A stretch of DNA of 44,026 nucleotides, the filler included, from Jimgerdemannia flammicorona (taxonomy: Eukaryota): assembly GCA_003990765.1 (NCBI GenBank). It is 2 parts of 2 records of this genome, joined end to end, with 100 filler letters (N's around TTAATTAATTAA, not from the genome) between each part and the next. Parts side by side here need not be neighbours in the genome. Positions count along the whole stretch, not along the records: positions 22,071 to 44,026 come from RBNJ01001357.1; 1 more part is not named here. The stretch is one strand, 5' to 3'. The position numbers were made by a program, and so were the translations under genes. How positions within the stretch are numbered: the stretch's first letter is position 1; each line of letters opens with the position of its first letter. Shown here piece after piece: positions 1-44,026 of this stretch. The notes under the pieces were generated by a model. It saw only the letters and a program-made list of their open reading frames with translations, ran no database searches and had not been told where the DNA came from.

Positions 1-107
1 ATAAAAAAGAAAAGAGGAGGAGTGGGGCCCCCTGATGGGGATCGGTTAGTGGGTGGGATATTGTATACTTATTCATAGACTGGTAATAAAGACGGAGACC
101 AAGGGAC

Positions 108-22070: not shown

Positions 22071-22160
22071 TGGCGGATGGTGGTAGGGAATAGGAGGGCT
22101 GCCACTAGGCCCATGGGGGTGTGACAGGGGGGGCATAGTGTTGACAGGGGGAGGGGTCAG

Positions 22161-23792: not shown

Positions 23793-23804
23793 ACAAACTC
23801 TTTT

Positions 23805-26800
23805 ATGATGAAGAACAATCTACGTATTTTGTCGATCAATGTCAATGGATTGCGGGACAGTGTTAAATGACGGCGGCTGTTCAGATGGCTTAAAGTCAGG
23901 AGGTATGATGTGGTGTTTCTTCAGGATATTAGGGCTTATGGCGAGTCAGATTATGAGATGTAGAGTAAAGAATGATATGGTGGAGCTGGCTGGAATAAGC
24001 AGGTGGGCATCTTGGTTGGCATGGGCAAAGGCGAACTGGTGGAGGTTGAGATCTATGGAGACAGACTGATTTGGGGAAGGATTACAGGAGGGGCAGGTGA
24101 TGGGTTGATGGTTGGCTCGGTTTACCTCCCTGCAGTTGGCAGAGAGCGAAAGCAATGGGTTGAAGAATGGCAGGCATGGGATGGGCAGGAGGAGGTTGCT
24201 TTGGACATTCTGGGGGGGGACTTCAACATGGTGCGTGATTGAACACTAGATAGGTCTGATGGTGGGGCAGGAGTCGTGGTCTCTTCTGGACTTTCGCAAT
24301 GGCTTCAGGTGGAGCATGACATGGGTTTGGTGGATGGTGTTCGTCAATGTCAGGGGGACAAGCTAGGACCTTTCACTCAGTGGCATCCAGTTGGAACAGC
24401 ATTGGTTGGGACACGAATTGATTGGGTGCTAGTGGCAGAGTGTTGGGGCAATGTACTGGATACTGCCGAGGTGCGCTGGTGTCCATGGTCTGATCATTGG
24501 GGTGTGGAGGTTTGCGGTAGATTTCAAGCAACAGGCAGTGGTGGAGGGCGCTGGTGCCTCAATGTGGCCCTACTCAAGAGGAAGACGGTGAGAGATAATT
24601 TCGTGGCAGTGGTGAGACAGGAAGTTGTGCGATGGCGCAATGAAGGACAGTTAATAGCAGAATGGTGGGGTAAATTCAAACATCTGGCTGGGGCCTACTG
24701 GCAGGATGTCAGAGAAGTGGCTGGGAAGGAACAGAAGGACAAGGAGAGAAGAGTAGAGAAGGGGCTGCGATGGCGGTTGAAGCTTTTGGAAAAGGGGGAC
24801 CTGCCTGGAGAGGTGAGCCGCTGATTGGCATTGGAGGTGGCAGAGCTACAGGCGGATTTAAGGGTGTCTGAGACCAGGGTAGTAGATGGCCTGCTGGCCA
24901 GGCTGTGGTCCAGGCAGCTAGAGGAAGGAGAGAGGCCGACAAGATATCTGTCTGGAGTTTTGAAGGCTAGGAGGGTGCAACACAGTTGGGCCTCAGTTTT
25001 GCGAGAAGATGGAGTAAAGGTCTCAGGGATTGCAGACATGTTAGGGGAGGTATCTGGTCAATGGCAAGCTCTTTGGCAGGATAGCGGGGAGCACGCTGAG
25101 GATACAGGGTTTGGAGAGGAGGATAACAATATGGTGACCAATTGGCCAGTGACTGTGATACCTGGGATAGGAGAGGCGGTCATGGGAGAGGTATCTCTAG
25201 ATGAAGTATCGGAAGCGCTGAGGAAGACACAGACTGGTTCATCTCCAGGGGAGGATGGGCTGCCCTGGGAATTCTGGAAGGAGTTTAAGTCGGAGTTTGG
25301 TGACTGGTTGGTGGAGATGGCCAATGCAGTTCTGAAGGAGGGCAGCTGGATTGGAAATGGTTCCTTGGGGCTAGTCTCTCTTCTATATAAGGAAAAGGGT
25401 GATCGACGGGTGTGGCGTAACTGGCGACCTGTCATGCTGCTGAATGTAGATAGAAAGCTAGTTTCGAAGATTCTGGCAGAGAGGATGCAGCAGTATATTG
25501 GTGTGCTGGTTGGAGAAGAGCAGCGAGGCTTTGTCAAGGGGAGGCAGATTAGAGATAGTACTGCTTGGGTGCAGAATGTCTTAGAGGGCTGTAGGAGCTG
25601 GCAGGTAGATGGCCAGATGGTCTTTCTGGATCAAGAGAAGGCCTATGACAGAGTGCGGTGGAGTTATTTGGAGGTGGTTCTGAGGAGGGCAGGGTTTGGT
25701 GCAGTAGAGGCAGGGTGACTGATGGGCCTGGTAAGGAGATGCCGAGCAGCGGTAATGATGAATGGATGGTGTGGACCAGAGTTTGCCTTGGGGCGAGGGG
25801 TACCGCAAGGGGATCCCTTCTCTCCTCTTCTTTATGTACTTTCTCTGAAGCCTCTGCTGGTGTGGCTGAAGGGGCAGCTCTCTGGTCTGCAGATGGGAGA
25901 TGTGGTCTGGCGGTTGGGTGCCTTTGTGGATGACATGGTGGTAGGGCTGGGTAGCCAGGAGGATGCCGAAGTCCTACAAGAAGGGGTCGGGCAGTATGAG
26001 AGGCTGGCAGGAGCAAAGTTGAACTGGTGCAAGTGTGAGACTATGGAACTTGGTGCTGGCCTGGGGGGACATGGACAATTTGGACAATTGGTAGCTATAG
26101 GGAGTACTGTTCATTATTTGGGTATCTGGTTTTCGGTGTATGGGACAGTCCTACCAAGGGAGTGGTGGTGTGGATTGGTTCAGAAGCTGGAAGGTGTGCT
26201 GACAGGATGGTCAGGAAGGAGCTTTTCATTGCTTGGCAGGATTGTGGTCTTGAATGTATATTGGCTGCCCAAGCTGTGGTATCTGGGTTATTATCTAGAT
26301 TTTCCAGGGTGGGTGGTGCAGCAGCTGAAGAAGATTGTAGAAGAGTGGTTGTGGCAGGGGAGGCGCCCACAGATTGGGTGGGAGACTTTGGTGATGAGGG
26401 TTTCTGATGGAGGCCTGGGGTTGGTGGATTTCAAGCGGTGACTGAAGGTACTTTGGGGCTGGTGGGGGTGCCGACTGAGGGAACTAGGTGAGGAAGGTTG
26501 GGGCAGGCTGGCTATGGACAATTGGGAGGTCAGGTTCTGCCCTCGTGGTGAGGTTTGGAAGGATATGCGGGGTTTGCTGCAGGTTGGAAATGTGGGTAGG
26601 CTGCGGTTTAAGGGGTTCTGGTGGGGCATTGTAGAGGTCTGGCTGGCCATGGGGTTGACAGGCCCAGAGATAGAGGTGGATGAGAACCCTGAGCAGCGAT
26701 GGTGGTGGCTGGGAGACATTCACGTAGGTGGCCACAGTCTGAAGGAGTACTCTCTGATTGAGGCAATAGAGTGGATTAGGTCTGGCCCTCTGGAGAGATG

Positions 26801-27437
26801 GCCGCCTGGTTGGCAGAGAGCTGGTATTGGTGAAGACTGGGAGTGGGGTCAAATTTGGAATTGGGGCGACTCCATCCACAAGATGATACCACTCAAGTAT
26901 TGGGTAGTTTGGTGGCGATTCCTGAGACATAATGTGATGCTGAGCTACCGGACGGGCTGGATGGAGATTGATGGCTGCCAGGACTGTGAGTGGTGCAATG
27001 AGGTGGATGGCAGGGTTGTTCAGACACCTGAACATGTCCTGGGGGCTTGCCCAGGCGTAGAAGGGTTTTGGCAGAGCTTGGAGGGGTACTGGGACCCAGC
27101 GGGGCATAGGGCAGAGGATCCGACCAGTCTGGTGGTCAAGCGCTGGCTGATAGGGGAGATTGGTGACATATGGGGGGGCCTTGGTCGAGTATTGGGGGTC
27201 TGGGTCTTGATGGCAGTACATTGGTGGTGGATTTTCGAACAGGACCCATGGATGGGGATTGGAGAGATGGTAGAGTGGTGGAGGTGGCTTCTCTAGGAGG
27301 TGGTTCAGGGGTGGTGGTATCAGGGGAAGCAACTTTGACCTGGGGCACTAAAGAAGGTACAGGACATTGTCCAGCAGAGCCGAGGGTACCTAGTGCTAGA
27401 TGATCGTGGGGTGAGATGGAAGGAAGGAGTTGGCTGA
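23805..27437 (+). pseudogene. LINE ORF2 (APE endonuclease, RT, C-terminal CCHC), about 1210 codons in one frame with premature stops only
   Basis: SINVNGL, FLQD, GGDFN, RIDW, SDH; SPGEDG, NWRPVMLLNVD, DQEKAYD, GVPQGDPFSP, AFVDD, YLGI; CEWC...EHVLGAC. Confidence 0.95.
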
Positions 27438-27540
27438 AGTATGCTACTTATGTATATTATGTGGTGTTAGTAGTGTATTGGGGTTTGTGGTTATTGTATT
27501 AGATAGTTCGTAATAAAGGAGTCCATGTGACTATAAAAAA

Positions 27541-28293
27541 GGCAGTATGCCATCGGAACACACACCTCCCCAACTATCAATCCAACCTTCAGCGCTTCCT
27601 CCAAAGACTCAGCCTCCTCAAAGCCCACCTCCACTCCCTCCAGTTTCTTCAAAAACTTTACAGACGCTGCTCCAGCCACCTGCTTAGCAATCAGCCCCAG
27701 TACTATTTTTGCCATCACTGCTAGGCCCTGGAAGCACAGTGTCACCATGAATACCAAGATCGATTTCTTGAGTAACAGCGCCACCACCAGGCCTGTTACA
27801 CCATCTGCCAAATCTCCTTGTCTTCCAAGCCCCAGTCACTCAGCCTTGCCATTCATAGTCACATCTGGATTTTTTTCCAGATTAGCAGTCCCTTCTCCAT
27901 CAGCCATCACACCCCCCCCAGCCACTACACCCCCAGCCCCACCACCTCTCCTGCTAAGGGCTACTCCCCCCTGTACTGCCACCTTCTCTGTTTCCTTGCC
28001 CTTTCTCAGCCAACTCTCCAGCCCCAATGTCTACCTTCTCCCCTTCACTGTCTCCACAAAGCTTGCCCTCCCAGATCCCTGTCCTCCACTACTGCCTCCT
28101 CCCCTTCCACGTCCACCTGCCAGCAGCCCCCTCATACCTCCCCCCAGGCCAGGGCCTCTCCCCACCTGCTGCCAGTTGAACATGCTCAGGCCACCCTACC
28201 CAGTACATATCTCAGATTGCCTGTCAGTTGCCATGTTGCTAGTCTCTTTTCTCCAAAAACAATGTTGTAGTTGCTTTACAAAGGTTGTGTAAC
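27541..28293 (-). mobile_element. 5' fragment (ORF1 start) of a related LINE, interrupted by the + strand LINE
   Basis: QVAGAASVKFL..VEVGFEE..LEEALKVGL..VPMAYCL aligns by eye with ORF1 at 22161. Begins GTTACAC on the minus strand. Confidence 0.8.
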
Positions 28294-29899
28294 CTGAGTG
28301 ATACCAGAGAGAGATGCTCAGACTTCATTCCACCCCTTCTCTGGTACATCCACCAGCTCATCCTCACTAACTGCTACCACCTGTCTCTCTTTTGCCAAAT
28401 CTGGGACTCCAAAGTAGACCTGCTTGGCACCACACATCTGCACATCCTCTGCTGCCCTGCTCTTTACAGCAGGACCCTACCTGATCAGAGGGAGAGTATC
28501 CTCCACAACAGGTTCCCAGACTTCAAACATATCATCCTCAAATGGGTCCACCCATAGCATCTTCCCAGCCTCCTCCAGAACCCTCTCTACCACTTCTCCT
28601 CTCTTACTGGCCCAGACACTCACCTCTGTACCCCCAGACTTCTCAATACTACCATCATTCTTCTTCACTCTCTCTTCCATACTCACCAACAGCTCTCTCT
28701 GTCTCTTATACCCCTGAGCCCTTTCCCACTGCCTCCTGTTGGTATAGATATGCTTTCCTTCCATAATCTCCAAATGTGTCAACTCTACATATCTCTTCCA
28801 GGCCTTCACCCTCCACTTGACAGCTCCACTCATCTCTTCCAGAGCCTCTAGCAGCTCCTCCTCCTCCTCATCACTCTCTTTCACCCTTGATACCTGACAG
28901 ATGAAAGCCCTCTATAGCATCACTGATGGCCAGTCGCTTGTCTTTCCAGTGGCCTCCTTCCCTGCCAGCCAAATCCTGATGTCAACATCTCCAGTCCTGA
29001 TAGTGGTCTCCTTCTATATCTGGAAATCAATATCCACCACATCACCATACTCTGCCATCACCTCCTCAACCCTCCTCCTTGTCTCAACTGCCATTACTGT
29101 AGACACCCCCTTTACCAGCAGCTGAACCACTCTGGGTCCCATCTAAGACAGTGTACCATAGGAACTACCACTTCTCTGACCACTACTCCAGTCTTCAGAG
29201 CCTCATCCAGTGGGCCTCCTCAAAGCCCACCTCAACCCCCTCCAGACCCTTCAGGAACTTCACCAAAGTGGCCCCAGCCACCTGCTTTGAGATAAGCCCC
29301 AGGACCATCCTCACCATTACTGCCAAGCCCTAGAAGTATAAGGTAGCTACAAACTCCAAGATAGACTTCTTGAGCAATGGTGCCACTACCAGCTCTGTCA
29401 CACCATCTGCCAGATCCCCCTTCTGCATAGGAACCTCTGCCCCACCTTGCCATTAGCCATCACATCTCTTTTTTTTTCCTGATTCTTTGTCACACTTCCA
29501 TCAGCAGTCCCACCTCCAGCCACAGCACCTCCAGCCCCTACACTCATATCCCTCATCTGGAAACTGCTCCCCCTACTGATGCTAGTCTTGTTCTTCCCCT
29601 CAGCAGCACTAGCCCTAGCTCCAACTGGCCATCCACTCCCCTTCACCTTGTCCACAAAGCTAGGGAGGCCAGGCCTTCCCCTACTTCCACCTAATATCAG
29701 TCCTTTACCAGATTCCTCTCCACCCTTCAACCCTCCAAAGGCTCCCATCCCCAGTCCAAAACCTCTCCCCACATTCTGCCAGCTGAATGCCCCAGGTCCA
29801 CCTGACCTAGTATATCTATCAGAACTCTTGCTCGATGACATTTTTATAGTACCTTTTCTCCAAGTTGTATTGAAAAATGTTGCTTGAAGTTGGTGTAAC
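28294..29899 (-). mobile_element. Second 5' LINE fragment (decayed ORF1)
   Basis: Homologous to 27541-28293 and to ORF1 (EEEEELLEALEE...RVKAWKRY). Also begins GTTACAC. Confidence 0.8.
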
Positions 29900-31969
29900 A
29901 TGAATTGTACAGTAGAAAGGTCCCATGCAATGTGTTACCAAATATATTTATAAAAACAATATACAAATTATGGGTCCCATCAACCATCAACAACTTACCT
30001 CAAAGAGAACTAGCCAAACCTCTGTAAAAAGCCTCATTAATCAATACCAACTTTCTATTGCACCCTTCTATCTCCCAATATCAACTGGCCTTGACTCTCT
30101 AAAATAATATTCTATATCTTCTTTACTGTCCCCAGCTCCCACTACCTCTCCTGGGACTTCTACTCTTGTACTATCTCTCTTATAAACCAGTACTATTACT
30201 TTACCAATTCTCCAATCCCCATCCAATATTCACTCTTGAAGACCCATCACCAGCCATCAGGACCCACACTCCTATAATCTATCCAACATTTCCCCAGATA
30301 TCACCAATATCTCCCACCAACCTCCTCTGAATCACTATACTGACAGAGTCCTCAGACCTTCTACCCCCAGTGCTCCAGTACTCCTCCAAGGTCTGCTAAT
30401 AATCTTCTACCCCAGGACAGGTCACCAAGATATGCTCCAGAGTCTAAACTACCTCCCCAGAGGATTCAGTATACTATTTGCAATCCTAACATCCATCTAT
30501 CTCCATCCAACCTGTCTGATAGTTTAACATCACATTTCTCCTCAAGAACTACCACTACACTATCTAATACCTAGGGGGTACCACCTGATATAACTTAGCT
30601 GTCTAACTCCAGACCCAACTCTACTCCCACATCTCTCCAATTCCAGCCATCTACTAACCAACTAGCCACCTCTCCAGTAGTTCTGTCCTAGCCCATTCTA
30701 TAGCCTTGACTAATGAATATTCCTTCAATATCCTACTACCTATCCTGAGCAACTCCAATCTCTACTACTATTACTCAGGGTCAACAATCTCCTCTATCTC
30801 AGACTCTGACAATCTTATGGCTAGCCAAGTCTCCACAATACTCTAATAGAATCCTTTATACCACAACCTACCAACTATTCCAACCCAGAGCAACCCTCTC
30901 ATATCCTTCCACTCCTTGCCCCTAGGGCAGAATCTAACCTCCCAATTGTCTATTACCAATCTGCCCTAGTCTCCCTCTCCTATCTCTACCAGATGGTATC
31001 TCCACCAGCTACTGAGGGTCTTCAGTTGCTGCTGAAAGTCCACCAGCCCCAGGCCCCTATCAGTAATTGATAGCACCAATGACTTCTATCTAATCTGCAG
31101 TCACCTCTCTCATCAAAGCCACTCTTTAACAGTCTTCTTCAGCTGCCACACTACCCACCCAGAAAAGTCCAAGTGATAATCCAGATACTACAACTTTGGA
31201 AGCCAGTATACATTCAAAACCACCACTCTCTCCACCAGGGAGAAGTTATGTTCAGACCAATCTGTCAAAATGTCTTCCTATTTCTTCACTATCCCACACC
31301 ACTACTCTCTTGATAGAACTGTCTCAAACACTATAAACTGGATACCCAAATATCTAACAGTCTCTCCAGTAGATACAATCTGTCCAAACCCACCCTCAGC
31401 CCCTATCCCAGCACCAAGCTCCAAAGTCTCACACTTTTTCCAATTCAACTTTGCTCCCATTAGCCCCTTATACTATTCTATTCCTTCTTGCAAAATTTCT
31501 ACATCCTCAATACTATCTAACTCCATTACTATATCATCTGCAAAGGCCCCTAGCTTCCACACTACCTCTCCCATCCAAAGTCCAGTCAGCTGTCCCCTCA
31601 GCCAGGCCAACACTAGCTCCAAGGAGAGAATATAAAGGAGAGAGGAGAGGGGGTCCCCCTGCAGAACTTCTCTATTCAAGGAAAACTCTGAACCAAACCA
31701 GCTATTCACCAGAACTGCCTCTCTACAGCTATACATCAGTTCCATAAGTCTTTCAACCTCTTCAATACCAAATCCCATCTTGTACAATACAGCCTTCAGA
31801 TAATATCATCTCATCCTATTATATATCTTTTCTTAATCTAAGAAGATCATCCTCCCATCTACTCTGCAACTTCTACAGCCCTCCAAAACATTCTACACCC
31901 AAGCTGTGCTGTCCCTGATCTGTCATCCCTTCACAAAGCTCCACTACTCCTTCTCTACCAGTCTGTCAA
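29900..31969 (-). mobile_element. Decayed 3' half of LINE ORF2 (RT to C-terminus)
   Basis: FVKG.QIRDSTAWV, LQGDPLSSLLY, GAFADD, LNVYWLPKL. Colinear with 25500-27437. Confidence 0.9.
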
Positions 31970-32499
31970 CTTGGCAGGCTGGTAGGAGAGGAGTAGTGGA
32001 GGAGTGGAGGAAGAGGGCCCAGTGGGAGCCAGGGGAGTGAACCCAGAGTCAGTGTCAAAGTGAACAAAAGACATGTGAAAGAGTGTGTATAAGGGGAACA
32101 AACAAAGAACATAACCAAAAATATATCAGTTGTTTATTGCCATGTAAAAATGCAGTCCTTATATATAAAATATGATATCCCAAAAGGGAGGATACACTAC
32201 AACTTGGGGTGAACTGAATTAGGAACCACATGATTGCCAGAGATAAGTGGAGATAAAGGGAGAGTCAATCTCAGTTACAGAAAAAAAATCACCAACAAAT
32301 ACAAACAAAACAAATTCAAATTGAAATTAAAAAACATCTGCAGACCCCAGAGGGGTGAGCATGAGTGAGGGGTGAGGCTGAAATGGAGTGAGCCACAGCA
32401 AGCCTGAGTGAAGTGAGGGGCCAAAGGCAGCAGAGGGGAGCAGAGTAAGGCTGAGACCCTGGAGTGAGTACAAGATCCTGGAGGGGGCAAGAATGTTTT

Positions 32500-34552
32500 T
32501 TAATCCTCTCCAGCAGAGCTGGAGGCATCAGAAGGTAATGAAAACACAAAACAAGAGTGATGGATTAAAGAAGAAACAAAAGGAAGATGTGAATGAGCAA
32601 TTAGAGGGTGTTGAGAAAGAGATGAAAGTCTAAGGTATAAAAGAGAAGAGTACAGGACAGTGTCAGGGCATTGAGTGACCCAGCGAGCATGATCAAATGG
32701 TATGACAAGAATTGGCAGTGGGAATGAAGAGGGGGTATGGAGAGGTAAGGGGAGAGAGAGGAAAGGAAAGGGGGGTAAAGGGGAGAGAGGAGGGAAGAGT
32801 GAACAACAGACCATTCAACAGAAGCAAGCAGATCATGAATGATAGAAATAGGGTAGACATAACAATGGATCATGAAGTTGCCAAGAACCCAAACAGCAGA
32901 CATCCAGTGAGAATGATGGGAGCAGCAAAGTGCAAGATGACAAATCTCACTACAAATGCATTCAAGAAGAGTGCAATAAGGATGATCGGAAAGGAAGTCA
33001 GAGAACTATTGTGAATGGGGAAATTGAGAATAGACAACAGTCCAGAAGGGGGAAAGAGAAATAGAAAGGTCTAAAAAGAGAATACTAGTTGTACAACAAA
33101 TCCAAGTAATAGAATGATAGGGAGAGTAGACACCATAGAACACACCAGGAATATCAACACCAGCAATAGCAAGAATAATGAAGTCATCAATGTATTGGCA
33201 AAAGAAGATATCCCCAGCCTAGAACATGATGGAAAGAGATGAAGAAGGATTACATATTGCACAAAGTTCATGGGTCAGGCTGACAAGGTTGGCAAGAGTG
33301 GGGGCACAATTCATTCCCATAACAATACCAGAAGTCTGGTGAAAAGAGCTGAGGGCTGACTTGAAGTAGTTGGAGCCATAAACAAGGAGCATAAGCTCAA
33401 CAATGGAAGCCAACAAAACTAGAGAATCTAAAGAAAAAACAATGGAACCCAGGAAGTGAAGACAATTATCAATCTCATCAAAATAAATAGCAGTGTAGAA
33501 GGAGGAGAAGTCACTAGAGGCCAAATGGGAAAATGGTGAACAGGCACAATGGTGGAGCAGAGAAGGGTGAGCTCCTGAGTATTATGAAGAATTGTGTACT
33601 CAGGCCCAAGATGGTGTTGTAGAAGAGCCATCTAAGAGAGGAAGAAGCAGGATAACCACTTCGAAATCTCAGTAGTAGGAGAGCAAAAAGCAGCCATAAT
33701 GGGATGCCAAGCCAGAGTAGGCTTGTGGACTTTAGGAAGAGCATAGAAAACCAGGAGATGAATGTCCAGCAAGAACAAAGAGTCCTGGAAGAAGTTAAAA
33801 ATGGGTTTCACAAAAGGAGAATCTGAAAGTAATCTGGTATAAGCTAGGGAAACCCAAAGGAGAGTGAGAACCTCATCCAATCCAAGAGCACTAGGCTCAT
33901 AAGCTGTGGCTCAAAGGAGGGCAGAAAGGCCATCAAGGTAGAGCAACTTAGGAATAAGTACAAAGCCTTGATTCTTATCAGTAACTGTGAGCAAATACAA
34001 AGGCAATTGCTTGACTGATTTAAGTGCAGTATGTATGGCATGGTCTGAAACCAAGCAAGAGTGAGCATGTCCAGGAATGGACAGTGAGCAAGCCATATCA
34101 AGAATTACACAGTGTGAAGAGACATTGGGAGGGGGGACCCAATTGCTAGGAATATAATAGTGAGAGAGTATCTCACCATGATCCTCAAAGAAGATGGCAA
34201 GGTCAAGAGCACAATGAAAATGTATAAGACGAGCTGGATCAGTGAAGGAGAATTGTGAGAGAGTTACAGGAAAAACAAAGTGAGGATCCAAGGATAAGGC
34301 AAAGACTTGAAGGGGAGAAAGAGAGCAGTTAGCCGAAGAGAAAGGAGGAGACAAAAGCATTCCAAGAGAAGAATAAACCTGAAAATTCGGGATAAGCAAC
34401 TGAGAAAGATGAAGGGGGGACAGTATGAGGAACCACTCAGGGTACACCAGAAGTGATGATGGAATCTAAGAAGAGACAGAGACACCAGGGAAGAACCATA
34501 CCAGGGGGAAGTTTAAGAGTGGGAGGCCTTCCCCTTCCCTCTGACTTTTTTT
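32500..34552 (-). pseudogene. Penelope-type reverse transcriptase, copy 1
   Basis: LSLDPHF, SNWVPP, TDKNQG, FYALPKVHK..WHPI..SPTTEISKWL, DFSSFYT, NYF..QTSGIVMG..APTLANL, YIDD, thumb region, LVIPF. No GIY-YIG motif seen. Confidence 0.88.
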
Positions 34553-35726
34553 GAAGGTGGCAAACCCAATGAGCAGGAGCACACTCCATCAGAGTGCCAG
34601 ACCTTGCAGCCACAGGCTTTTGTGCAGCCTTTACATTCAGAGACATGGGTAGAGGAGACAGAGGAGGAGCCAGTGGAAGAGACAGAGGGGGAGCGAGCAG
34701 CTGAAGGGACAGCAGTACAAGGAACACTACCATGGGAGCAGACAGACTAGTCAGGTACCAGTAGGTATGGTGGAGGCAACCAGAGCAAACAGCATATGGC
34801 CAGGCCCTGACAGGGTGAGAACTAAGTTGACAGCCATACTTGGGGGCAGGGGGAACAGAGGAGGAGGCCTTGGCAGGGAAGGGAGACTGAGAAGAGGCTG
34901 ATGAAGCCTGGTTGGGCTTGGTGGGGGTCTTGGTGGGGGCTTTGGCAGTGGCAGCAGTGAAGGAATGGACCTTGGTATAGGTGGTGGCATGAGCCTTAGC
35001 ATGGATGGCCTTGGAGACTGAAACCTCAGGGGAGGCAGATAGGGGAGCAGTGGTGGTAGCATGAGCAGTAGTGGCAGCATGTGATTTTTCCTGCTCATGA
35101 AGACAAGTGACAAAAGAGGTGCTAGTAAGGAGGAAGTGACAAACAGTATCAATGTCAGTAATAGCAGAGAGAACATCTTAGATAGCAAAACCACAGAAAG
35201 GGACAGGATCTATGAGGCGGAAAGTGACAAAGACTATGAAAGTGGCACAGGCATGGTAGAAGGAGGCAGAAGTGGTAGCAGCAGAAGTAGCAGCAGCATC
35301 AGTAGCAGCAAGCTTGGTGGCAGTAGTAGTAGTACAAACCTCTTCAGAGAGGGCTTGGTGGTAGGCCTCAGGAAGAATGGAGTAGTGGATGGCAGGCAGA
35401 GTGATAATGTTGACATTATGATAGAGACAAACCTTCTTGGTGGAGAGGGCAAGAACTGACTGGAACTGAGAGAGGAGCAGATGACCAGAAGGATGAAGGT
35501 TTAGAGGGAGAGACAGAATGGTGGATGAGACATAGGTCTCAAATGAGACAGTGGTGGGGATGAAAGCAGAGAGAGGAGGAGGAAGAACCTCATCCATAAT
35601 CTCATTGATAGAGACAGAGACCCCAAGGACAGACAGTATAGCAGTGGAGGAGGAGGGCCCAGTGAGAGCCAGGGGAGTGAACCCAGAGCCAGTATCAAAG
35701 CAAACAGAAGATATATAGAAGAGCAT
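34513..35726 (-). pseudogene. PLE ORF1, copy 1 (Ala/Thr/Ser-rich, Cys/His clusters)
   Basis: Long, largely open frame upstream of RT, conserved in the three copies. Confidence 0.65.
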
Positions 35727-36144
35727 GTATAAGAGGGATGAACAAAGAATATAACCAAAAATGCATCAGCCATTTATTGCTATGTAAAAATGCAGTCCTT
35801 ATATGTATACAAAATATGATGTCCAAAAAGGGAGGATGTGCCACAACTTGGGGCGAACTGAATTAGAAACCACATGACCACTAGAGATAAGCAGAGATAA
35901 ATGGTGAGCCAATTCCAGTTGCAGGATAAAAATTACCAATAAACACAAACAAAATAAATCCAAATTGAGATTAAAAACCATCTGCAGACCTCAGAGGGGT
36001 GAGTATAAGTGAGGGGTGAGGCTGAAACAGAGTGAGCTGCAGTGAGCCCAAGTAAAGCAAGAGGCTGAAGACAGCAGAGGGGAGCAGAGTAAGGCTGAGA
36101 CCCCAGAGTGAGCATGAGACCCCAGAGGGGGTAAGAATGTTTTT

Positions 36145-38194
36145 TAATCCTCTCCAGCAGAGCCAGAGGAATCAGAAGGTGATGAAAATGCAAAACAAGA
36201 GCAATGGATTAAAGAAGAAATAGAAGGAAGATGCAAATGAGAATTAGAGGGTATTAAGAAAGAGACGAAAGTCCATGGTATAAAAGAGAAGAGCACAGGA
36301 CAGTGTCAGAGTGTTGAGCAACCCAGTGAGTATGATCAAATAGTACAACAAGAATTGGGGGTGGGAATGAAGAGAGGGTATGGAGAGAGTAAGAGAGGAG
36401 AGAGGAAAGAGAAGGGGGGTAAAGGGGAGAGAGGAGAGAAGAGTGAACAACAGACCATTCAACAGAAGTAAGCAGATCACAAATGATAGAAATAGGGTAG
36501 GCATAATGATGGACCACAAAGTTGCCAAGAACCTGAACAGCAGACACCCAGTCAGAATGATGGGAGCAGCAAAGTACAAGATGACAAACCTCACTATGAA
36601 TGCATTTGAGAAGAGTGCGATGAGGATGATTGGAAAGGAAGTCAGAGAACTGTTGTGAATAGAGAAACTGAGAATAGACAACAGTCCAGAAGGGGGAAAG
36701 AGAAATAAAAAGGTCCAAAAAGAGAATACTGGTTGTATCACAAACCCAAGTAATGGAATGATGGGAAGTGTAGACACTATGGAATATACCAGGAATATCA
36801 ACACTAGCAACAGTGAGAATAATAAAGCCATCAATGTATCAGTGAAAGAAGATATCTCCAGCCCAGAACATAATGGAAAGAGATGAAAAAGGATCATATA
36901 TTGCATGAAGTTCATGGGTCAGGCTGATAAGGTTGGCAAGAGTGGGGGCACAATTCATTCCCATGGCAATATCAGAAGTCTGATAAAAAGAGCCAAGGGC
37001 TGACTTGAAGTAGTTGGAGCCACAGATGAGGAGTGTAAGCTTAACAATGGAAGCCAACGAAACTGGAGAATCTAAAGCAAAAACAATGGAACCCAGGAAG
37101 CAAAGACAATCATTGATCTCATCAAAATGAATAGTAGTATAGAATGAGGAGAAGTCACCAGAGGCCAAATGGGAAAAATGGTGAATAGGTACAATGGTGG
37201 AGCAGAGAAGAGCGAGCTTCGGAGTACCATAAAGAATTGTATACTCAGGCCCAAGATGGTGTTGTAGAAGAGCCATCCAAGAGAGGAAGAAGCAGGATAA
37301 CTACTTCGAAATCTCAGTGGTAGGAGAGCAAAAAGTAGCTGTAATGGGACACAAAGCCAGAGTAGGCTTGTAGACTTTAGAAAGAGCATAGAAAACTGGA
37401 AGATGAATGTCTGATAAGGATAAAGAGTTCTGGAAGAAGTTAAAAATGGGTTTGCAAAAGGAGAATCTGAAAGCAACCTGGTGTGAGCCAGGGAAATCTG
37501 AAGGAGAGTGAGAACCTCATCCCATCCAAAAGCACTGCTTGTAAGCTATGGCTCAAAGGAGGGCAAAAAGGCCATTAAGGTAAAGTGACTTAGGAATAAG
37601 TGCAAAGTCTTGATTCTTATCAGTGACTGTGAGCAAATGCAAAGGCAATTGCTTGACCAATTTAAGTACAGTATGCATGGCACAGTCTGAAACCAAGCAA
37701 GAGCAAGTGTATCCAGGAACAGACAGCAAGCAAGCCATGTTAAGGAATATGTAGTGTGAAGAGATATTGGGAGAGGGGACTCACTTGCTAGGAATATAAT
37801 AGCAAGAGAGCATCTCACCATGATCCTCAAAGAAGATAGCAAGGTTAAGAGTATGACAAAAACATGTAAGATGAGCTGGATTAGTGAAGGAGAATTGTGA
37901 GAGAGTTATAGAAAAAACAAAGTGAGGACCCAAGGATAAGGCAAAGACTTGTAGGGGAGAAAGAGAGCAGTCAGCCAAAGAGAAAGGAGGAGACAAAATC
38001 ATTCCAAGAGAAGAATAAACCTGAAAATTTGGGATAAGCAACTGGGAAAGATAAAGAGGAGACAGTATGAGGAATTACTCAGGATATATCCAAAGTGACA
38101 ATAGAATCCAAGAAGGGATGGGGACACTGGGGGAGAACTATGCCAGGGGGAAGTTTAAGAGCAAGAGGCCTTCTCCTTCCCTCTGACTTTTTTT
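36145..38194 (-). pseudogene. Penelope-type reverse transcriptase, copy 2
   Basis: TDKNQ, GDFSSFYTTI, IAMGMNCAPTLANL, (F)LDL, SNHP...CCSH...YAYP. Confidence 0.88.
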
Positions 38195-39361
38195 GAAGAT
38201 AGTGAACCTGATGAGTGGGAGCACACCCCATCAGAGTGCCAGACCTTGTGGCCACAGGCTTTTATGCAGCCCTTACATTCAGGGGCACAGATAGAGGAGG
38301 CAGAGGAGGAGCAAGCAGCTAAAGAGATAGCAGCATGAGGAATACTACCATAGGGGCAGATGGACTTAGTCAGGTGCCAGTAGATATGGTGGAGGTGACT
38401 GGAGCAGACAATACATGGCCAGGCCCTGACAGGGTGAGAACCAAGTTGGCAGCCATGCTTGGGGGCAGGGGTAATAGAGGAAGAGGCCTTGGTGAGAGAG
38501 GGGGACTGAGAAGAGGCTGACAAAGCCTGGTTGGGCTTGGTGGGGGTCTTGGCAGGGGCCTTGGTGATGGCAGCAGTGAAGGAATGGACCTTGGCATGGG
38601 TGGCAGCATGAGCCTTGGTATGGATGGCCTCAGAGACTGAAACCTCAGGGGAGGCAGATAGGGGAGCAGTGGTGACAGCATGAGCAGCAGCAGTAGTATG
38701 TGACATTTCCTACTTGTGAAGGAGTGACAAAAGAGGTACCAGCAAGGAGGAAGCAACAAATGGCATTGATGTCAGTAGCAGTAGAGGGAATGTCTTGGAT
38801 GGCAAAGCCACAGAAAGGGGCAGCATCCTTGAGGCGGGAAGAGGTGAAGGCCACAAAAGCAGTACAGGTATGGTGGAAGGAGGTGGAGGTGGTGGCAGTG
38901 GAAGTAGCAGCAGCATCAGTGGCAGCAAGCTTGGCAGCAGCAGTAGTGGCATGAACCTCTTTGAAGAGGGCTTAGCAGTGGGTCTCAGGGAGAATAGAGT
39001 AGCAGATGGTGGACAGAGTGACAATGTTGATGTCATGGCAGAGATGAGCCTCCTTGGCAGAGAGGGCAAGAACCAACTGGAACTGAGAGAGGAGCAGATG
39101 ACCAGAAGGATGAAGGTCTAGAGGGAGGGACAGAATGGCAGATAAGACATAAGTCTTGAATGAGATAGTGGCAGGGATGAAAGTGGGGGGAGGAGGAGGA
39201 GGAAGAACCTCATCCATAACCTTATTAATAGAGACAGAGGCTCCAAGGGTAGATAGTACAGTAGTGGAGGAGGAGGGCCCAGCGGGAGCCAGGGGAGTGA
39301 ACCCAGAGCCAGTGTCAAAGCAAATAGAAGATATGTGAAAGAGCATGTAGAAGGGAGACAA
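38155..39361 (-). pseudogene. PLE ORF1, copy 2
   Basis: CIVCSSHLHHIYWH and CKGCIKACGHKVWHSDGVC; ends SSKKVRGKEKASCS*. Confidence 0.65.
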
Positions 39362-39994
39362 ACAAAGAATATAACTGAAAATGCATCAGCTATTTATTAC
39401 TATGTAAAAATGTGGTCCTTATATACAAAATACAATATCCCAAAAGGGAGGACATACCACAACTCAGGGTGAACCAAATTAGGAACCACATGACCACCAG
39501 AGATAAGCAGAGATAAAGGGAGAGCCAATCTCAGTTGCAGGATAAAAATCACAAACAAATACAAATAAAACAAATCTAAATCAAGGTTGAAAACATCTGC
39601 AGACCTCAGAGGGGTGAGCATGAGTGAGGGATGAGGCTGAAATGGAGTGAGCCACAGCAAGTCCAAGTGAAGCAAGGGGCTAAAGGCAGTGGAGGGGAGC
39701 AGAGTAAGGTCAAGACCCCCAGAGCAAGTGCAAGATATTAGAGGGGGTAAGGATGTTTTTTAATCTCAATTTGGATTTGTTTTGTTTGTATTTGTTTGTG
39801 ATTTTTATCCTGCAACTAGGATTGGCTCCCCCTTTATCTCTGCTTATCTCCAGTAGTCATGTGGTTCCTAATTTGGTTTGCCCTGAGTTGTGGTGCATCC
39901 TCCCTTTTGGGACATTATATTTTATATATAAGGACCACATTTTTACATGGCAATAAATGGCTGATGCATTTTCAGTTATGTTCTTTGTTCATCC

Positions 39995-41260
39995 CCCTTA
40001 TATATACTCTTCTATATATCTTCCATTTGCTTTGACACTGGCTCTGGGTTTTCTCTCCTGACTCCTGCTGGGCCCTCCTCCTCTATGGCTCCCACTGAAC
40101 CCTCCTCCTCTACTGCTGTACCATCTGCCCTCAGGGCCTCTATCTCTGTCGATGAGGTTATGGATGAGGTTATGGATGAGGTTCTTTCTCCTCCTCCTCT
40201 CCCCACTTTTGTCCCTACCACTGTCTTATTCAAGACCTATGTCTCATCCACTATTCTGTTCCTTCCTCTGGACCTTCATCCTTTTGGTTATCTGCTCCTC
40301 TCTCAGTTCTGGTCAATTCTTGCCCTCTTCACCAAGGAGGCTTGTCTCTACCATGACATTGACATCATCACTCTGCCCACTATCCACTACTCCATTCTCC
40401 CTGAGGCCTGCTGCCAAGCCCTCTCCGAAGAGGTTTACACTGCCACTGCTGCTGCCAAGCTTGCTGCCACTAATGCTGCTACTACTTCTGCTGCCACCAC
40501 CTCCACCTCCTTCAACCATACCTGTACTGCTTTTGTGACCTTTGCCTCTTCCTATCTCACAAACACTGTCCCTTTCTGTGGCTTTGCTGTCCAAGACATT
40601 CTCTCCACCACTGCTGACATCGATGCCATTCATCACTTCCTCCTTGCCAGTACCTCTTTTGCCACTCATCTTCATGAGTAGGAAATGTCACATACTGCCA
40701 CTGCTGCTTGTGCCACCACCACTGCTCCCCTACCTGCCTCCCCTGAGGTTTTGGTCTCTGAGGCCATCCATGCTGAGGCTCATGCTATCACCTATACCGA
40801 GGTCTGTTCCTTCATCACTGCTGCCACCAAGGCTCCTGCCAAGACCCCCACCAAGTCCAATCAGGCTTCATCGGCCTCTTCTCAGTCCCCCTTCTCTGCC
40901 AAGGCCTCCTCCTCTGTTCCCCCTGCCCCCAAGCATGACTGCCAACTTGGTTCTTGCCTCATCAGAGCCTGGCCATGTGCTGTCTGCTCCAGTCACCTCC
41001 ACCATGCCTACTGGTACCTGGCTAAGTCTGTCTGCCCCCATGGTGGTGTTTCTCACACTGCTGCCCCTTCAGCTGCTCGCTCCCCCTCTGCCTCCTCCAT
41101 CAGCTCCTCCTTCGCCTCCTCTACCCATGCCTCTGAATGTAATGGCTGCACAAAAGTCTGTGGCTGCAAGGTCTGATACTCTGATGGTGTGTACTTCTGC
41201 TTGTTGGGTTCGCTATCTTCAAAAAAAGTCAGAGAGAAGGAGAAGGCCTCCTGCTCTTAA
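39995..41260 (+). pseudogene. PLE ORF1, inverted copy (start approximate)
   Basis: ORFs 40085..40681 and 40685..41176 share one frame that ends at TAA 41258-41260. Confidence 0.65.
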
Positions 41261-42437
41261 ACTTCCCTCTGGCATAGTTCTCCCCTGATATCCCTGTCCC
41301 TTCTTGGATTCTATTGTCACTTCTGGTGTGCTCTGAGTGGTTTCTCATGCTGTCCCCCCTTCACCTTTCTCAGTTGCTTATCCTGAATTTTTGTGTTTAT
41401 TCTTCTCTTGAAATGCTTTTGTCTCCTTCTTTCTCTTCAGCTGACAGCCTCCTTTCTCCCCTTCAAGTCTTTGCTTTATCCTTGGGTCCTTGCTTTGTTT
41501 TTCCTATGACTCTCTCACAATTCTCCTTTACTGATCTGGCTTGTCTACACATTTTCATCATGCTCTTGACCTTGCCATCTTCTTTGAGGATTGTGGTAAG
41601 ATGCTCTCTCACTATTATATTCCTAGCAATTGGGTCCCCCCTCCCAATGTCTCTTCACACTACATATTTCTTAACATGGCTTGCTTGCTGTCCATTCCTA
41701 GATACACTCACTCTTGCTTGGTTTCAGACTGTGCCATGTGTACTATGCTTAAATCAGTCAAGAAATTGCCTTTGCATTTACTCACAGTCACTGACAAGAA
41801 TCAAGGCTTTGTACTTATTCCTAAGTTACTCTACCTTAATGGCCTTTCTGCCCTTCTTCGAGCTGTGGCTTACAAGCCGAGTGCTCTTGGATTGGATGAG
41901 ATTCTCACTCTCCTTTGGGTTTCCCTGGCTCACACCAGGTCGCTTTTGGATTCTCCTTTTGTAAACCCCATTTTTAACTTCTTCCAGGACTCTTTGTCCT
42001 TGCCAGAAATTCATCTTCTAGTTTTCTATGCTCTTTCAAAAGTCCTCAAGCCTACTCTGGCTTGGTATCCCATTACAGCTGCTTTTTGCTCTCCTACCAC
42101 TGAGATTTCAAAATAATTATCCTGCTTCTTCCTCTCTTAGATGGCTCTTCTACAACACCATCTTGGGCCTGAGTACACAATTCTTCATAACACTCAGGAG
42201 CTTGCCCTTCTCTACTCCACCATTGTACCTGTTCACCATTTTTCCCATTTGGCCTCTGGTGACTTCTCCTCCTTCTACACTACTATTCATTTTGATGAGA
42301 TCAATAATTGTCTTTGCTTTCTGGGTTCCATTATTTTCCCTTTGGATTCCCCAGTTTTGTTGGCTTTTATTGTTGAGCTTACACTCCTCATCTGTGGCTC
42401 CAACTACTTTGAGTCAGCCCTTGGCTCTTTTCACCAG
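41221..42437 (+). pseudogene. Penelope-type RT, inverted copy, interrupted by a LINE
   Basis: LSLGPCF, SNWVPP, TDKNQG, FYALSKVLKP, GDFSSFYTTI, NYFES..SFHQ, then a switch to LINE sequence. Confidence 0.85.
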
Positions 42438-44026
42438 TCAGTGGCGGATGTTGAGGCGCTTACAAATATAGTGGAATGGTATGAGACACACTCTGGGGTG
42501 AAACTCAACTGGCATAAGTGTGAGACATTGATGTTGGGGAATGGGTTGGTAGGAGGGGATGTCATTGGAACAATTGTCCCCACAGGAGAGGTGGTGTAGT
42601 ATCTCAGTATCTTTCTTTCTGTTTATAGATCAGTCTTGCCACAGGTGTGGTGGGAGAGGAAGGTGGTCATTTGGGGGGAGGCTCTGAGAGGTTGGGGGGG
42701 TCGTCACATCTCCCTGGCAGGGCAGGTATCAATCCTGAATGTGTACTGGTTCCCCAAGCTGTGGTATGTGGTATATCCCTTGGACTTTCCAGCCTGAGTG
42801 GTGAAAAGGCTGATGAAGATGGCTCAGGATTGGATTTGGATAGGTAGAAGGTCACAGATTAGTTGGGATACCCTTGTGGAGCCAGTGGTTAGGGGAGGCC
42901 TTGGTCTTGTGGATTTCCCTAGGAGGCTACACTGTCTGTGAGCTTGGTGGTTGGAAAGGGCAGTTGAACTACAAGGAGGAGGTTGGGTTCCGCTGATGCA
43001 GAAGGTGTGGGAAATGAGATTCTCACCCCAGGGGTCCTCCGGGGACTTGCTCTCTCTGGTGGGGCTGAATGGAAGCCAATGGCTATGTATAAGGGCTTCT
43101 GGTGGGGGGTGGTGGATGGAGCACACTGGATAGGTCTGCGCTGGTGAGGTAATGAGGGGGAGGAGGTGTGGGGCCCTGCTATGTGGCAATGGGACAGACT
43201 GTTACTAGGGGGGGTTCTACTTGTAGAGTTTGATATTGGTGATAGAGTAGAGTGTCAGCGGAGACTTGGCCAGAATCTTTGGCTGAGCAGTTGGCAGATA
43301 GTGGGGATTGGTGAGGAGTGGGACTGGACAGGAATCTGGGCCTGGAGTGCTGTGGTGCAGAGGTGGCTTCCTCCCAAGTTCTGGGTAGTATGGTGGTGAA
43401 TGCTGTGAAGGAATGTTATGTTGAATTTCTGTGCTGGGCATCTGGTGAATGGTGGCCAATTGGATTGTGAGGAGTGTTATAATATAGGGCAAGCTGGGGA
43501 TTTTGTACAGATGCCAGAACATTGGCTGGGAGAGTGTGAGGTATTGGGGGACTTTTGGGTAGCTATAGGGAACAGGCTGGGTGTAGAAAGGAGGCCGGAT
43601 GGTGAGTGAGATCGCTGGGAGGATTTGAGATCTAGACTAGTGGGAGGTATTGGCAATAGGTTGCTCACTGTAGGGTGGGTAATTGCAGTGTGGGTAGGGT
43701 TGGCTGGACATTGGCTATTTGTTTTTGAGGAAGGGTGACAGACAGAGATGTAGGAGAAGTTGGTAAGGTGGGAAGAGTTGATGGGTGATCTTCTTACTGA
43801 GTGGTGGGTGGGTTGGGGTCCTCAGGGTGGGCAATGCTGCCATCTGGTAGAAGGGATCTGTAGCCAGAGTGGTGGGAGGGTAGAGATGGTGGTTGACAAA
43901 GTAGTCTACTATCGAGAGGGTATGGGGAGGGGCCCTAGGGAGATAGGGTAGGGGTGGGGCACTGTGTAATATATAGAGGATAGATGGGTATTAATAAAGA
44001 ATGGAGTCCAAGTGACTATAAAAAAA
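42438..44026 (+). mobile_element. 5'-truncated L1/Tx1-like LINE ending in poly(A)
   Basis: GVKLNWHKCE, LNVYWFPKLW, GGLGLVDF, CEEC...EHWLGEC. Ends AATAAAGAATGGAGTCCAAGTGACTAT(A)n. Confidence 0.9.

Follow-up and report, generated by a model that had tools for sequence, protein, structure and literature searches.

A head-to-head Penelope-like element palindrome with its strand switch inside a built-in 13-nt inverted repeat

The window analysed here, a stretch of 44,026 nucleotides from Jimgerdemannia flammicorona, contains units of a Penelope-like element (PLE) in a tandem array, the sense 5′ end of which is joined to an inverted copy of the element. The strand switch between the two lies inside a 13-nt inverted repeat that is built into every unit, and the loop of that repeat, about 155 nt, was kept as the spacer of the palindrome. 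The locus illustrates cleanly a head-to-head arrangement that has been described for PLEs before. Our preferred reading, which we hold tentatively and put at somewhat less than an even chance, is that the tandem array and the inverted copy arose together in a single PLE retrotransposition event.

Results

The right arm of the palindrome was recognised by repeat search and self-blastn as the reverse complement of the left arm (Table 1), and 2251 of 2630 aligned positions are identical (85.6%, three-way MAFFT alignment of 2704 columns), a similarity that by this alignment lies far beyond chance. The palindrome described in an earlier note on this DNA is therefore confirmed. That description leaves out that the left side belongs to a tandem array, which extends from about 31995 to 39765, and the right arm also matches the adjoining tandem copy at 33336-35982 (84.5% over 2694 columns). 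The 2.6-kb segment is thus present as three copies, two in tandem and one inverted. From the junction outwards the right arm runs through the inverted repeat, a TATA-like box (39920-39933), an ATG (39947) and an N-terminal low-complexity region to motif B of the reverse transcriptase (RT), and it breaks off in mid-RT at 42437, about 20 codons short of the YxDD box.

Every unit has the same layout of arm 1, a loop of about 155 nt and arm 2. In the first two units from the left (32493-32505, 36137-36149) arm 2 is followed by CTCTCCAGCAGAGC, and in the third (39753-39765) it is followed by TCAATTTGGATTTG, which is the reverse complement of the sequence preceding arm 1. The junction accordingly sits where the earlier note had placed it, inside the second copy of the inverted repeat with the hairpin loop as spacer. 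The 13-mer occurs seven times at up to two mismatches where 1.89 occurrences are expected, a count of seven being reached in 0 of 100 shuffles, and the 13-nt repeat is the longest local inverted repeat of the unit (four pairs of at least 10 nt within 400 nt, in 3851 bases). Its stem is A/T-rich and is missing from the minimum-energy fold of the DNA; neither the DNA fold nor the RNA fold was better than that of shuffled sequence (z of 0.69 for DNA and 0.22 for RNA).

Table 1. Positions of the features discussed in the text, counted along the whole window.
Feature	Position	Strand	Basis or remark
Left flank, LINE B, 5′-truncated, APE-type	30042-31969	-	67.2% to 25506-27432; RVT_1 E 4.8e-10
31-nt hairpin at left junction	31939-32001		Arms 31939-31969 and 31971-32001, 84% complementary
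Terminal partial unit (3′ pseudo-LTR)	31995-32505	-	blastn and four-copy alignment at left boundary
Full PLE unit, second in sense order	32506-36149	-	3644 nt; direct repeats, RT motifs
Full PLE unit, first in sense order	36150-39765	-	3616 nt; sense 5′ end is the inversion junction
Arm 1 (GATTAAAAAACAT)	32325-32337, 35969-35981		One mismatch each
Arm 1 of junction unit, decayed (GGTTGAAAACAT)	39585-39596
Arm 2 (ATGTTTTTTAATC)	32493-32505, 36137-36149, 39753-39765		Perfect in all three
Arm 2 at the junction	39753-39765		13-nt overlap holding the strand switch
Palindrome spacer (inverted-repeat loop)	39597-39752		156 nt; 155 nt in the other two units
Left palindrome arm	36980-39596	sense on -	Repeat search, self-blastn, MAFFT
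Right palindrome arm (inverted PLE copy)	39753-42437	sense on +
RT-coding region, first unit	36254-37545	-	phmmer best match P0001, E 5.2e-65, 40% identity
Equivalent RT regions	~32601-33900 (-), 41535-42437 (+)	-, +	RVT_1 E 3.7e-4 on equivalent copy
27-nt tandem duplication	40086-40112	+	Private to right arm
12-nt tandem duplication	40172-40183		Private to right arm
Right flank, LINE C, 5′-truncated	42438-44026	+	60.1% to 25994-27043; alignments

Direct repeat families spaced at 3615-3645 define a unit of about 3.63 kb. In the sense direction the array consists of two full units followed by a 510-nt terminal partial unit that ends near 31995, about 160 nt beyond the first ATG, and we place the sense 3′ terminus of the insertion at about 31995-32003. 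The full units and the partial unit are 84.4% identical over 4166 columns (blastn of 31995-36149 against 35635-39765). The unit at 32506-36149 begins in the sense direction with the arm GATTAAAAAACAT, the reverse complement of 36137-36149, and the sense 5′ edge of the whole array coincides exactly with an inverted-repeat arm. The + strand of the array is antisense, that is, the strand of the first-strand cDNA.

Translation of the minus strand gives the RT motifs DKN.G, LPKVHKP, Q..G..MG..CAP, YIDD and FLDL, which we take to be of PLE type. The segment 36254-37300 was translated with one in-frame stop as X, and one frameshift lies upstream. The phmmer search returned 107 proteins at E≤1e-3, and the best of them, together with the motifs, supports the assignment to Penelope that had been made in the earlier note; judged from its sequence, the element is an old, decayed PLE array with its sense on the minus strand. 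RVT_1 was found in 12 of 16 proteins taken from these matches for domain scans. P0013 has a C-terminal GIY-YIG match just under the Pfam cut-off (E 2.5e-4, 21.7 vs 22.6 bits), the more distant P0154 (Ambystoma) combines an RT with a weak GIY-YIG match (E 0.0052), and P0003 (622 aa) and P0108 of Gigaspora margarita (554 aa) showed no endonuclease domain. GIY-YIG was absent at E≤1 from the six read-through frames of one decayed unit and from eight ORFs, and domain scans of several of the nearest protein relatives likewise did not detect it. Rfam scans gave no hammerhead ribozyme family in 21000-44026 at E≤1 or in 32200-32620 at E≤10.

Over 2625 ungapped columns the two tandem copies and the inverted copy differ by private substitutions, the three counts being 190, 195 and 177; at the 2352 columns outside CpG, the comparison that the earlier note had proposed, the counts are 97, 104 and 98. 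In the four-copy region splits of 12, 11 and 7 favour no topology. The three copies are equidistant, and the inverted copy is of the same age as the tandem ones. The same note had been concerned that small indels of the right arm must post-date the copying or contradict it. The duplications that it saw there are present, but what it took for a longer segment of the right arm at 41075-41125 is a 24-nt deletion at 38296/38297 in the left copy, the third copy retaining those 24 nt; each indel is private to a single copy and post-dates the copying.

Both flanks of the PLE are LINE ends in opposite orientations that cannot be halves of one target, and no target-site duplication was seen at the insertion flanks. 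On the left the truncated end of LINE B adjoins the PLE and forms the left arm of a 31-nt hairpin, the right arm of which is a fold-back copy of the left, followed by the PLE 3′ end. The 31 nt between LINE B and the PLE 3′ end are thus a copy of the flank, not element-derived sequence; PLEs can carry a 30-40-bp 'tail' extension at one end. The divergence of the hairpin arms is similar to that of the PLE palindrome, and five of its six mismatches are transitions (hand count on the sequence). On the right, LINE C starts just past its FADD box and has its poly(A) from 44020, at the end of the window. Since the right arm meets this LINE copy, the loss of its 3′ part may be a secondary event, and the palindrome may run on past 44026.

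Discussion

According to our preferred reading, first-strand cDNA would have been primed at the left, at about 31995-32003, and, by reading a PLE RNA of several units or by switching from one RNA to another, would have produced one pseudo-LTR and two full units. Synthesis would have stopped once the built-in inverted repeat, which borders the pseudo-LTR on its 5′ side, had been copied; there the 3′ end of the cDNA (arm 2, ...ATGTTTTTTAATC-3′) could pair with arm 1 of the same strand, 155 nt upstream. The cDNA would then have been extended on itself for about 2.7 kb, and the long hairpin strand joined to the right-hand DNA end at 42437, after which duplex copying would fix the palindrome with the loop as its spacer. 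While the anatomy, the polarity, the exact 13-nt overlap and the equal ages are shown by the sequence, we infer that the switch took place on the cDNA, that it was intramolecular and that its product was joined to the chromosome in this way.

The polarity of the array fits cDNA fold-back because its sense 5′ end, where the 3′ end of the cDNA is expected, lies at the inverted repeat, and pairing of arm 2 with arm 1 followed by extension of the 3′ end gives exactly the observed sequence. Fold-back synthesis that halted at an arbitrary point predicts a right arm that ends in mid-RT; the outer end does not lie at the presumed RT start of the family, and canonical second-strand priming does not predict such an end. 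The second fold-back, 31 nt long, at the other end of the insertion also fits the idea, and so do the hairpins of related metagenome loci and the resemblance of the array's 3′ end to the RT start of PAc, both described below. On the other hand, the weak stem with its long loop counts against fold-back, as does the restriction to a single locus, the search for independent copies of the family having found none. The opposite-facing LINE flanks and the lack of a target-site duplication count against a single event. To our knowledge PLE RTs have no RNase H, so the host would have to clear 2.7 kb of template RNA, which is also unfavourable. A further point against is that the inverted copy is 5′-complete and 3′-truncated, whereas the typical copy described in the relevant part of PMC8557442 is 5′-truncated.

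The fold-back of cDNA suggested in the earlier note is thus in keeping with the polarity and with the second fold-back, but other routes give the same junction, and the novelty of the mechanism is overstated, since self-priming at palindromic PLE junctions has been in print since 2013. In the part of that paper that treats these junctions (PMC3846280), palindromes at inverted PLE junctions are already taken as self-priming, and head-to-head copies are said to be common. A single old locus illustrates this published hypothesis and does not prove it.

The same junction is obtained from two annealing cDNAs, from inversion of a fourth unit or from fold-back at the DNA level. The first of these, which we regard as unlikely, supposes that both ends of the target DNA prime the copying of PLE RNA, that arm 2 forms the end of the left cDNA and the complement of the other arm that of the right one, and that the two 3′ ends anneal via the 13-nt repeat and are filled in; the right arm would then be a copy of RNA, not of the left arm. 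Junction and equal ages come out the same, and removal of the template RNA is not required. Purified protein of the anole PLE PAc cleaves and extends both target strands in vitro (PMC11167929), and typical PLE insertions show an inverted copy beside the upstream pseudo-LTR, at least in the portion of PMC8557442 that concerns them. However, the RT start sites of PAc are identical for both strands (PMC11167929), and the right arm should therefore end at the equivalent of 31995, whereas it ends in mid-RT at 42437 unless LINE C truncated it. Programmed double nicking is also doubtful because no GIY-YIG was detected in the element or in several close relatives.

Inversion of a fourth unit, which seems to us quite unlikely, would require that at least one further tandem unit once lay to the right. 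Arm 2 of one unit and arm 1 of the following unit form 13-bp inverted repeats with about 3.45 kb between them; an exchange or a template switch from one to the other would invert the unit body that they enclose and duplicate nothing. The exact junction would be produced, LINE C cutting the right arm at 42437 would hide the continuation, and the equal age of the inverted copy would be explained automatically: equidistance does not argue against inversion of a pre-existing unit, and if the right arm is such a unit the equal ages leave the inversion undated. Exchange between 13-bp repeats is inefficient, though, and the second fold-back at the left junction would stay unexplained. The inverted copy also lies at the sense 5′ end of the array, just where, from what PMC8557442 says of typical insertions, PLEs carry one.

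In the case of a fold-back at the DNA level, which we consider distinctly improbable, a + strand 3′ tail would be exposed where a fork stalled, or the DNA broke, on the right side of arm 2; arm 2 would anneal to arm 1 and host synthesis would copy the array backwards. The inverted duplication would later have suffered a break that healed at 42437. A short inverted repeat and a kept spacer are the hallmark of such events in yeast and human, as the descriptions in PMC7467729, PMC3907307 and PMC10766183 indicate, and an arbitrary distal end joined to unrelated DNA would fit. Nevertheless, a duplication of this kind is younger than the DNA it duplicates, and the copies here are equidistant: with private changes of 190 against 195 and 177, a later copy is not compatible with the counts, and the event would have to fall within about the first tenth of the life of the array. 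Nor would this route explain why the junction coincides with the sense 5′ edge of the array, or why there is a 31-nt fold-back at its other end. An assembly or amplification chimera is hardly credible even though the window derives from a draft assembly and holds two contigs with an N-TTAATTAATTAA-N linker between them at 21971-22070. Chimeric reads give identical arms, whereas 379 of 2630 aligned positions, besides private indels, distinguish these arms, as the earlier note had argued from their divergence, and a 13-nt overlap cannot produce a mis-join.

The origin of the tandem and inverted structures of PLEs is still termed undefined in PMC8557442, and the locus is a very legible example of them, with the switch placed within 13 nt, the loop surviving, the growing strand identified by the polarity and the copies equally old. 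A broader and rather unlikely proposal is that the post-ORF hairpin or inverted repeat, where the pseudo-LTR begins on its 5′ side, may be a dedicated cis-element for snap-back priming of the second strand in an apparently endonuclease-less PLE lineage, head-to-head palindromes being its unresolved by-products. Of 78 related loci in metagenomes, 16 have a near-perfect hairpin of 40-66 nt that follows the RT match at a distance of 241-860 nt, in the same relative position as the 13-nt inverted repeat, and under this proposal the strong 'CCCCC + 20-25-bp stem' hairpins of distant relatives would be the same device. Should independent insertions invert at the same repeat, a specific cis-element would be tied to the formation of inverted pseudo-LTRs, and this organisation would extend to a PLE lineage without a detectable endonuclease.

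Among known systems, LINE-1 twin priming resembles the present case in its head-to-head topology, which arises through two primers or a strand switch in target-primed reverse transcription. In twin priming the inverted segment comes from a different, upstream part of the RNA, and the process is not known to duplicate sequence, whereas the present locus has the same 2.6 kb in either orientation. The fold-back inversions and palindromic duplications known from yeast and human, and ODIRA, share the switch in a short inverted repeat, the kept loop and the arbitrary distal end, but they belong to host replication or repair and involve no reverse transcription; the present event dates back as far as the retroelement copies and lies at the 5′ edge of the element. 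The endonuclease-deficient Athena and Coprina, like our element, have the RT at the C-terminal end of the ORF, and the closest full-length-looking relatives of our element are, like them, without an endonuclease domain. According to the section of PMC3846280 that deals with them, Athena and Coprina are telomere-associated and do not share the tandem and inverted organisation, whereas the present locus is both tandem and inverted and no telomeric repeats were noticed.

The closest likeness is to Penelope/Poseidon, Pen1-6 of Adineta vaga and Naiad/Chlamys, which have in common with our element a telomerase-like RT, tandem units forming pseudo-LTRs, a TATA-like box in the pseudo-LTR and an inverted copy at the sense 5′ end with a palindromic or overlapping junction. 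Unlike in canonical PLEs, GIY-YIG and the hammerhead ribozyme were not detected in the present element. The junctions given in the corresponding part of PMC3846280 comprise a 15-bp overlap and palindromes of 18 bp and 38 bp at the 5′ ends of pseudo-LTRs; the repeat here is instead spaced, with 13-nt arms and a 155-nt loop that remains as spacer, and the inverted copy differs from the published typical one in being 2.7 kb long and complete at its 5′ end. Finally, RT of PAc starts internally, 111-118 nt into the ORF, on a multi-copy RNA template (PMC11167929), and the 3′ end of the present array, shortly inside the ORF, resembles this initiation.

Structure of the palindrome and the array

The head-to-head palindrome claimed by an earlier note made from the sequence alone was recovered by both a repeat search and self-blastn as an inverted match between 36980-39596 and 39752-42437. 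By self-blastn, the right arm of the palindrome also matches the adjoining tandem copy at 33336-35982 (84.5% over 2694 columns), and 31995-36149 matches 35635-39765 (84.4% over 4166 columns), so that the left side is not one copy but an array of tandem units recurring every 3615-3645 nt. Every unit carries a built-in inverted repeat of 13 nt, with 155-156 nt between its arms (arm 1 and arm 2, Table). Arm 2 leads into CTCTCCAGC in two of the units and into TCAATTTGG in the third, the latter being the reverse complement of the sequence preceding arm 1. The strand switch therefore lies inside the 13 nt and leaves the loop, 39597-39752, as a spacer, which is where the earlier note had placed it. 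The arm 1/arm 2 repeat is the longest local inverted repeat of a unit, there being four pairs of at least 10 nt within 400 nt in 3851 bases. Another stretch with which arm 2 could pair (GGATTAAAGAA) lies 55 nt onward on the plus strand, and alternative pairings of the module are therefore possible. The palindrome and the array lie entirely within the second contig (22071-44026), and the evidence is that of one locus in a draft contig. A larger palindrome spanning 30042-44026 and including the LINE flanks was rejected, LINE B and LINE C being only 56.9% alike.

Table. Features of the element, its flanks and the rest of the window
Feature	Position	Strand	Remarks
Unit, sense order	from 39765	minus	arm s1, loop, arm s2, TATA-like box and ATG, coding-like part, RT, tail (s1, s2: arms read in sense)
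TATA-like box, then ATG with AATAAA	39920-39957 (right-arm coordinates)		
Arm 1 (GATTAAAAAACAT)	32325-32337, 35969-35981; decayed at 39585-39596		13-nt inverted repeat
Arm 2 (ATGTTTTTTAATC)	32493-32505, 36137-36149, 39753-39765		13-nt inverted repeat
Arm 2 and second possible partner	32496-32506/32562-32572, 36140-36150/36206-36216		
Hairpin between LINE B and PLE 3′ end	31939-31969 and 31971-32001		31 nt; arms 84% complementary
LINE A	22125-27434	plus	nearly intact, APE-type; 1770-codon frame with few stops; Exo_endo_phos and RVT_1
Direct repeats	27539-28313 / 29145-29919		66% alike; match LINE A 5′ region inverted
LINE B	30042-31969	minus	5′-truncated, APE-type; 67.2% to 25506-27432; RVT_1 E 4.8e-10
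LINE C	42438-44026	plus	5′-truncated; starts just past FADD box; poly(A) at the window's last bases
152-codon open frame	42141-42599	plus	in frame over PLE/LINE C junction; joins PLE RT motif B to LINE RT just past FADD box
LINE 3′ end with A33 run	19-143		resembles 43924-44026
Ty3/gypsy-type RT-RNase H fragment	1448-2182		first contig
WD40 ORF	14361-17834	minus	first contig; 1157 codons
NPC1-like fragment	19409-20674	minus	first contig
Artificial linker between the contigs	21971-22070		44 N, TTAATTAATTAA, 44 N

Identity and polarity of the element

A Pfam scan of the individual ORFs gave no match, and a minus-strand read-through translation matched RVT_1 weakly (E 3.7e-4). The same read-through contains clear reverse transcriptase (RT) motifs, namely VTDKNQG, LPKVHKP, FHQTSGIVMGMNCAP, YIDDFIIL and FLDL. 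When the 349-residue read-through of 36254-37300, with its one stop as X, was searched against 1.84 billion representatives, 107 proteins were found at E<=1e-3, the best of them (P0001) at E 5.2e-65 and 40% identity. RVT_1 was present in 12 of the 16 matches that were scanned, and one of these 16, P0013, had a weak C-terminal GIY-YIG match just under the Pfam cut-off. A search from P0001 gave 71 proteins, those with named sources coming from Gigaspora margarita (32% identity), two salamanders and a pseudoscorpion; the protein from the salamander Ambystoma combines an RT with a weak GIY-YIG match. The RT motifs together with the related RT proteins identify the unit as a Penelope-like element (PLE). 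No GIY-YIG domain was detected by Pfam in the ORFs and read-through frames of the unit, the copies of which are decayed, nor in the closest full-length-looking relatives, P0003 and the Gigaspora protein P0108. No hammerhead ribozyme was found in the unit, and no known RNA family of any kind in the loop module. The sense strand of the unit is the pyrimidine-rich minus strand. Its long ORFs were rejected as an intact gene, since frameshifts and stops break them and a pyrimidine-rich sense strand favours such frames.

A low-complexity coding-like stretch of about 1.5 kb lies upstream of the RT, which is followed by a short GA-rich tail. In the array, two complete units are followed by a partial one of 510 nt, which stops at about 31995-32003; units closed off by a terminal pseudo-LTR are the classical organisation of PLEs. 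The sense 5′ edge of the array is exactly s1, and its 3′ end lies about 160 nt beyond the first ATG. This position resembles that in the anole element PAc, for which RT initiation inside the ORF, 111-118 nt from its beginning, and a multi-copy RNA template have been proposed (PMC11167929). It follows from the sense anatomy and this PAc-like 3′ end that the plus strand of the window is that of the first-strand cDNA, synthesised from left to right.

Flanking sequences

The left arm of the 31-nt hairpin at the left junction derives from a LINE, as its homologue in LINE A shows, and the right arm repeats the truncated 5′ end of LINE B as a fold-back copy. By hand count, the mismatches between the two are almost all transitions, at about the frequency found among the PLE copies, and the hairpin seems to be another fold-back of equal age. 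MiRNA-like Rfam matches at 31938-32002 are merely this hairpin and fall far under the gathering scores. LINE B and LINE C, being only 56.9% alike and in opposite orientation, do not represent the halves of a single target, and no target-site duplication is visible; they may be target DNA, later insertions or primers. A 7-nt match (ACCAGTC) seen by eye near both outer junctions was put down to chance or microhomology, and not to a target-site duplication, because each copy sits in element-derived sequence.

The repeats of 27539-29919 stand head-to-tail with LINE B in a nest rich in LINEs, where the skew flips near 27400; the sense strand of LINE A is strongly G-rich (GC skew about +0.45). The open frame that fuses PLE and LINE C is probably a coincidence. 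The first contig also contains AT-rich blocks of 23-30% GC. Its LINE 3′ end at 19-143, being similar to 43924-44026, suggests a single genome as the source of both contigs.

Age of the copies

The near-equal non-CpG divergence of the three copies, a comparison the earlier note had called for, comes from a three-way alignment of a 2.6-kb segment (33336-35995, 36980-39610 and the reverse complement of 39739-42437). Pairwise identities are 85.1%, 85.5% and 85.6%, and private substitutions number 190, 195 and 177 in 2625 ungapped columns, or 97, 104 and 98 at the 2352 columns that are not CpG-associated. In a region of about 350 nt present in four copies, the three possible splits are backed by 12, 11 and 7 sites. 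The near-equal private counts and these splits indicate that all copies are equally old. Transitions make up 534 of the 562 private changes (95%). CpG observed/expected is 0.05-0.08 in the PLE (31961-42437), 0.05-0.33 in LINE-containing segments and 1.11 in the GC-rich genes of 14001-21000, which suggests heavy CpG-targeted decay of the repeats only. The indels that the earlier note saw as possibly contradicting direct copying are real (tandem duplications of 27 nt and 12 nt in the right arm alone, a 24-nt deletion in the left copy alone), but as each is private to one copy they are later than the event and do not contradict it. A chimeric read or an assembly artefact is excluded by the 14% divergence between the arms.

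Origin of the inverted copy

The best explanation, which we put forward tentatively, is a snap-back of first-strand cDNA at the built-in repeat. The growing plus strand, ending in arm 2, would pair with its own arm 1, and extension of the paired end along the same cDNA strand would yield the observed structure. The polarity, the position at the 5′ edge, the outer end of the right arm in mid-RT (42437, about 20 codons upstream of YxDD) and the second fold-back all fit such an event. The cDNA fold-back proposed in the earlier note thus agrees with polarity, edge position and an arbitrary outer end, but three other routes would yield an identical junction. The stem of the repeat is weak and is missing from the DNA minimum-energy fold; the loop module was rejected as an unusually stable structure, as neither fold beats shuffled sequence (z 0.69 and 0.22).

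An unlikely alternative source of the junction is the annealing of two cDNAs via the 13-nt repeat. In vitro, the PAc protein cuts both strands and extends them (PMC11167929); however, the outer end of the right arm does not coincide with the RT start site, and an endonuclease is not detectable in the element. Somewhat less probable is an exchange between arm 2 and the arm 1 that follows it, which would have inverted a fourth unit already present; the equal ages of the copies are no argument against this. Host fold-back replication is more doubtful again, since the equal private-change counts would confine it to roughly the first tenth of the time that the array has existed.

Related loci

In metagenome contigs, 78 loci were recovered by a protein-guided scan; all are distant (23-32% identity), most are on single-unit contigs, and none shows a head-to-head PLE pair. 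Large inverted matches occur in two (L027 and L033), and in L033 these are at least about 2.6 kb away from the RT match. Identical ends of 123 or 127 nt in at least 20 related contigs of 3-4 kb reflect circular or tandem assembly, and one contig (L055/L056) holds 3.7 identical tandem units of 3196 nt each. The exact pattern of the arm-2 region had no match in the metagenome contigs; no relative was found in viral contigs, nor in genome contigs by a single-protein scan.

A near-perfect hairpin of 40-66 nt is present in 16 of the 78 loci (L024, L025, L034, L044, L045, L049, L053, L057, L061, L065, L068, L069 and four more). It lies 241-570 nt past the RT match in 14 of these; the other two are contigs with identical ends in which, with the contig read as a circle, it lies about 720-860 nt past the match. 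The outer stem consists of A/T runs, and CCCCC immediately precedes the hairpin in 12 of the 16. Its relative position is that of the built-in repeat described here, which starts about 105 nt past the last aligned residue, a hint that the lineage is characterised by a hairpin at the unit boundary.

Comparison with known Penelope-like elements

PMC8557442 states that PLEs frequently have an inverted 5′-truncated copy beside the upstream pseudo-LTR, and calls the cause of their tandem and inverted structures undefined. Inverted PLE junctions with a 15-bp overlap and with palindromes of 18 bp and 38 bp are described in PMC3846280, where self-priming is explicitly inferred, the authors preferring RNA self-priming on an antisense template. 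The locus described here thus represents a variant of something already known. In the literature searched, with older PLE papers outside its scope, no description was found of a PLE whose cDNA snaps back at a built-in spaced repeat. The inverted copy is long and 3′-truncated here, in contrast to the 5′-truncated copies of PMC8557442. The endonuclease-deficient PLEs of fungi and protists are presented in PMC3846280 as not sharing the tandem and inverted organisation, and its presence in an apparently endonuclease-less lineage is new. New, too, are the spaced form of the repeat, with a spacer left behind, the long 3′-truncated inverted copy and the argument from the polarity of the cDNA strand.
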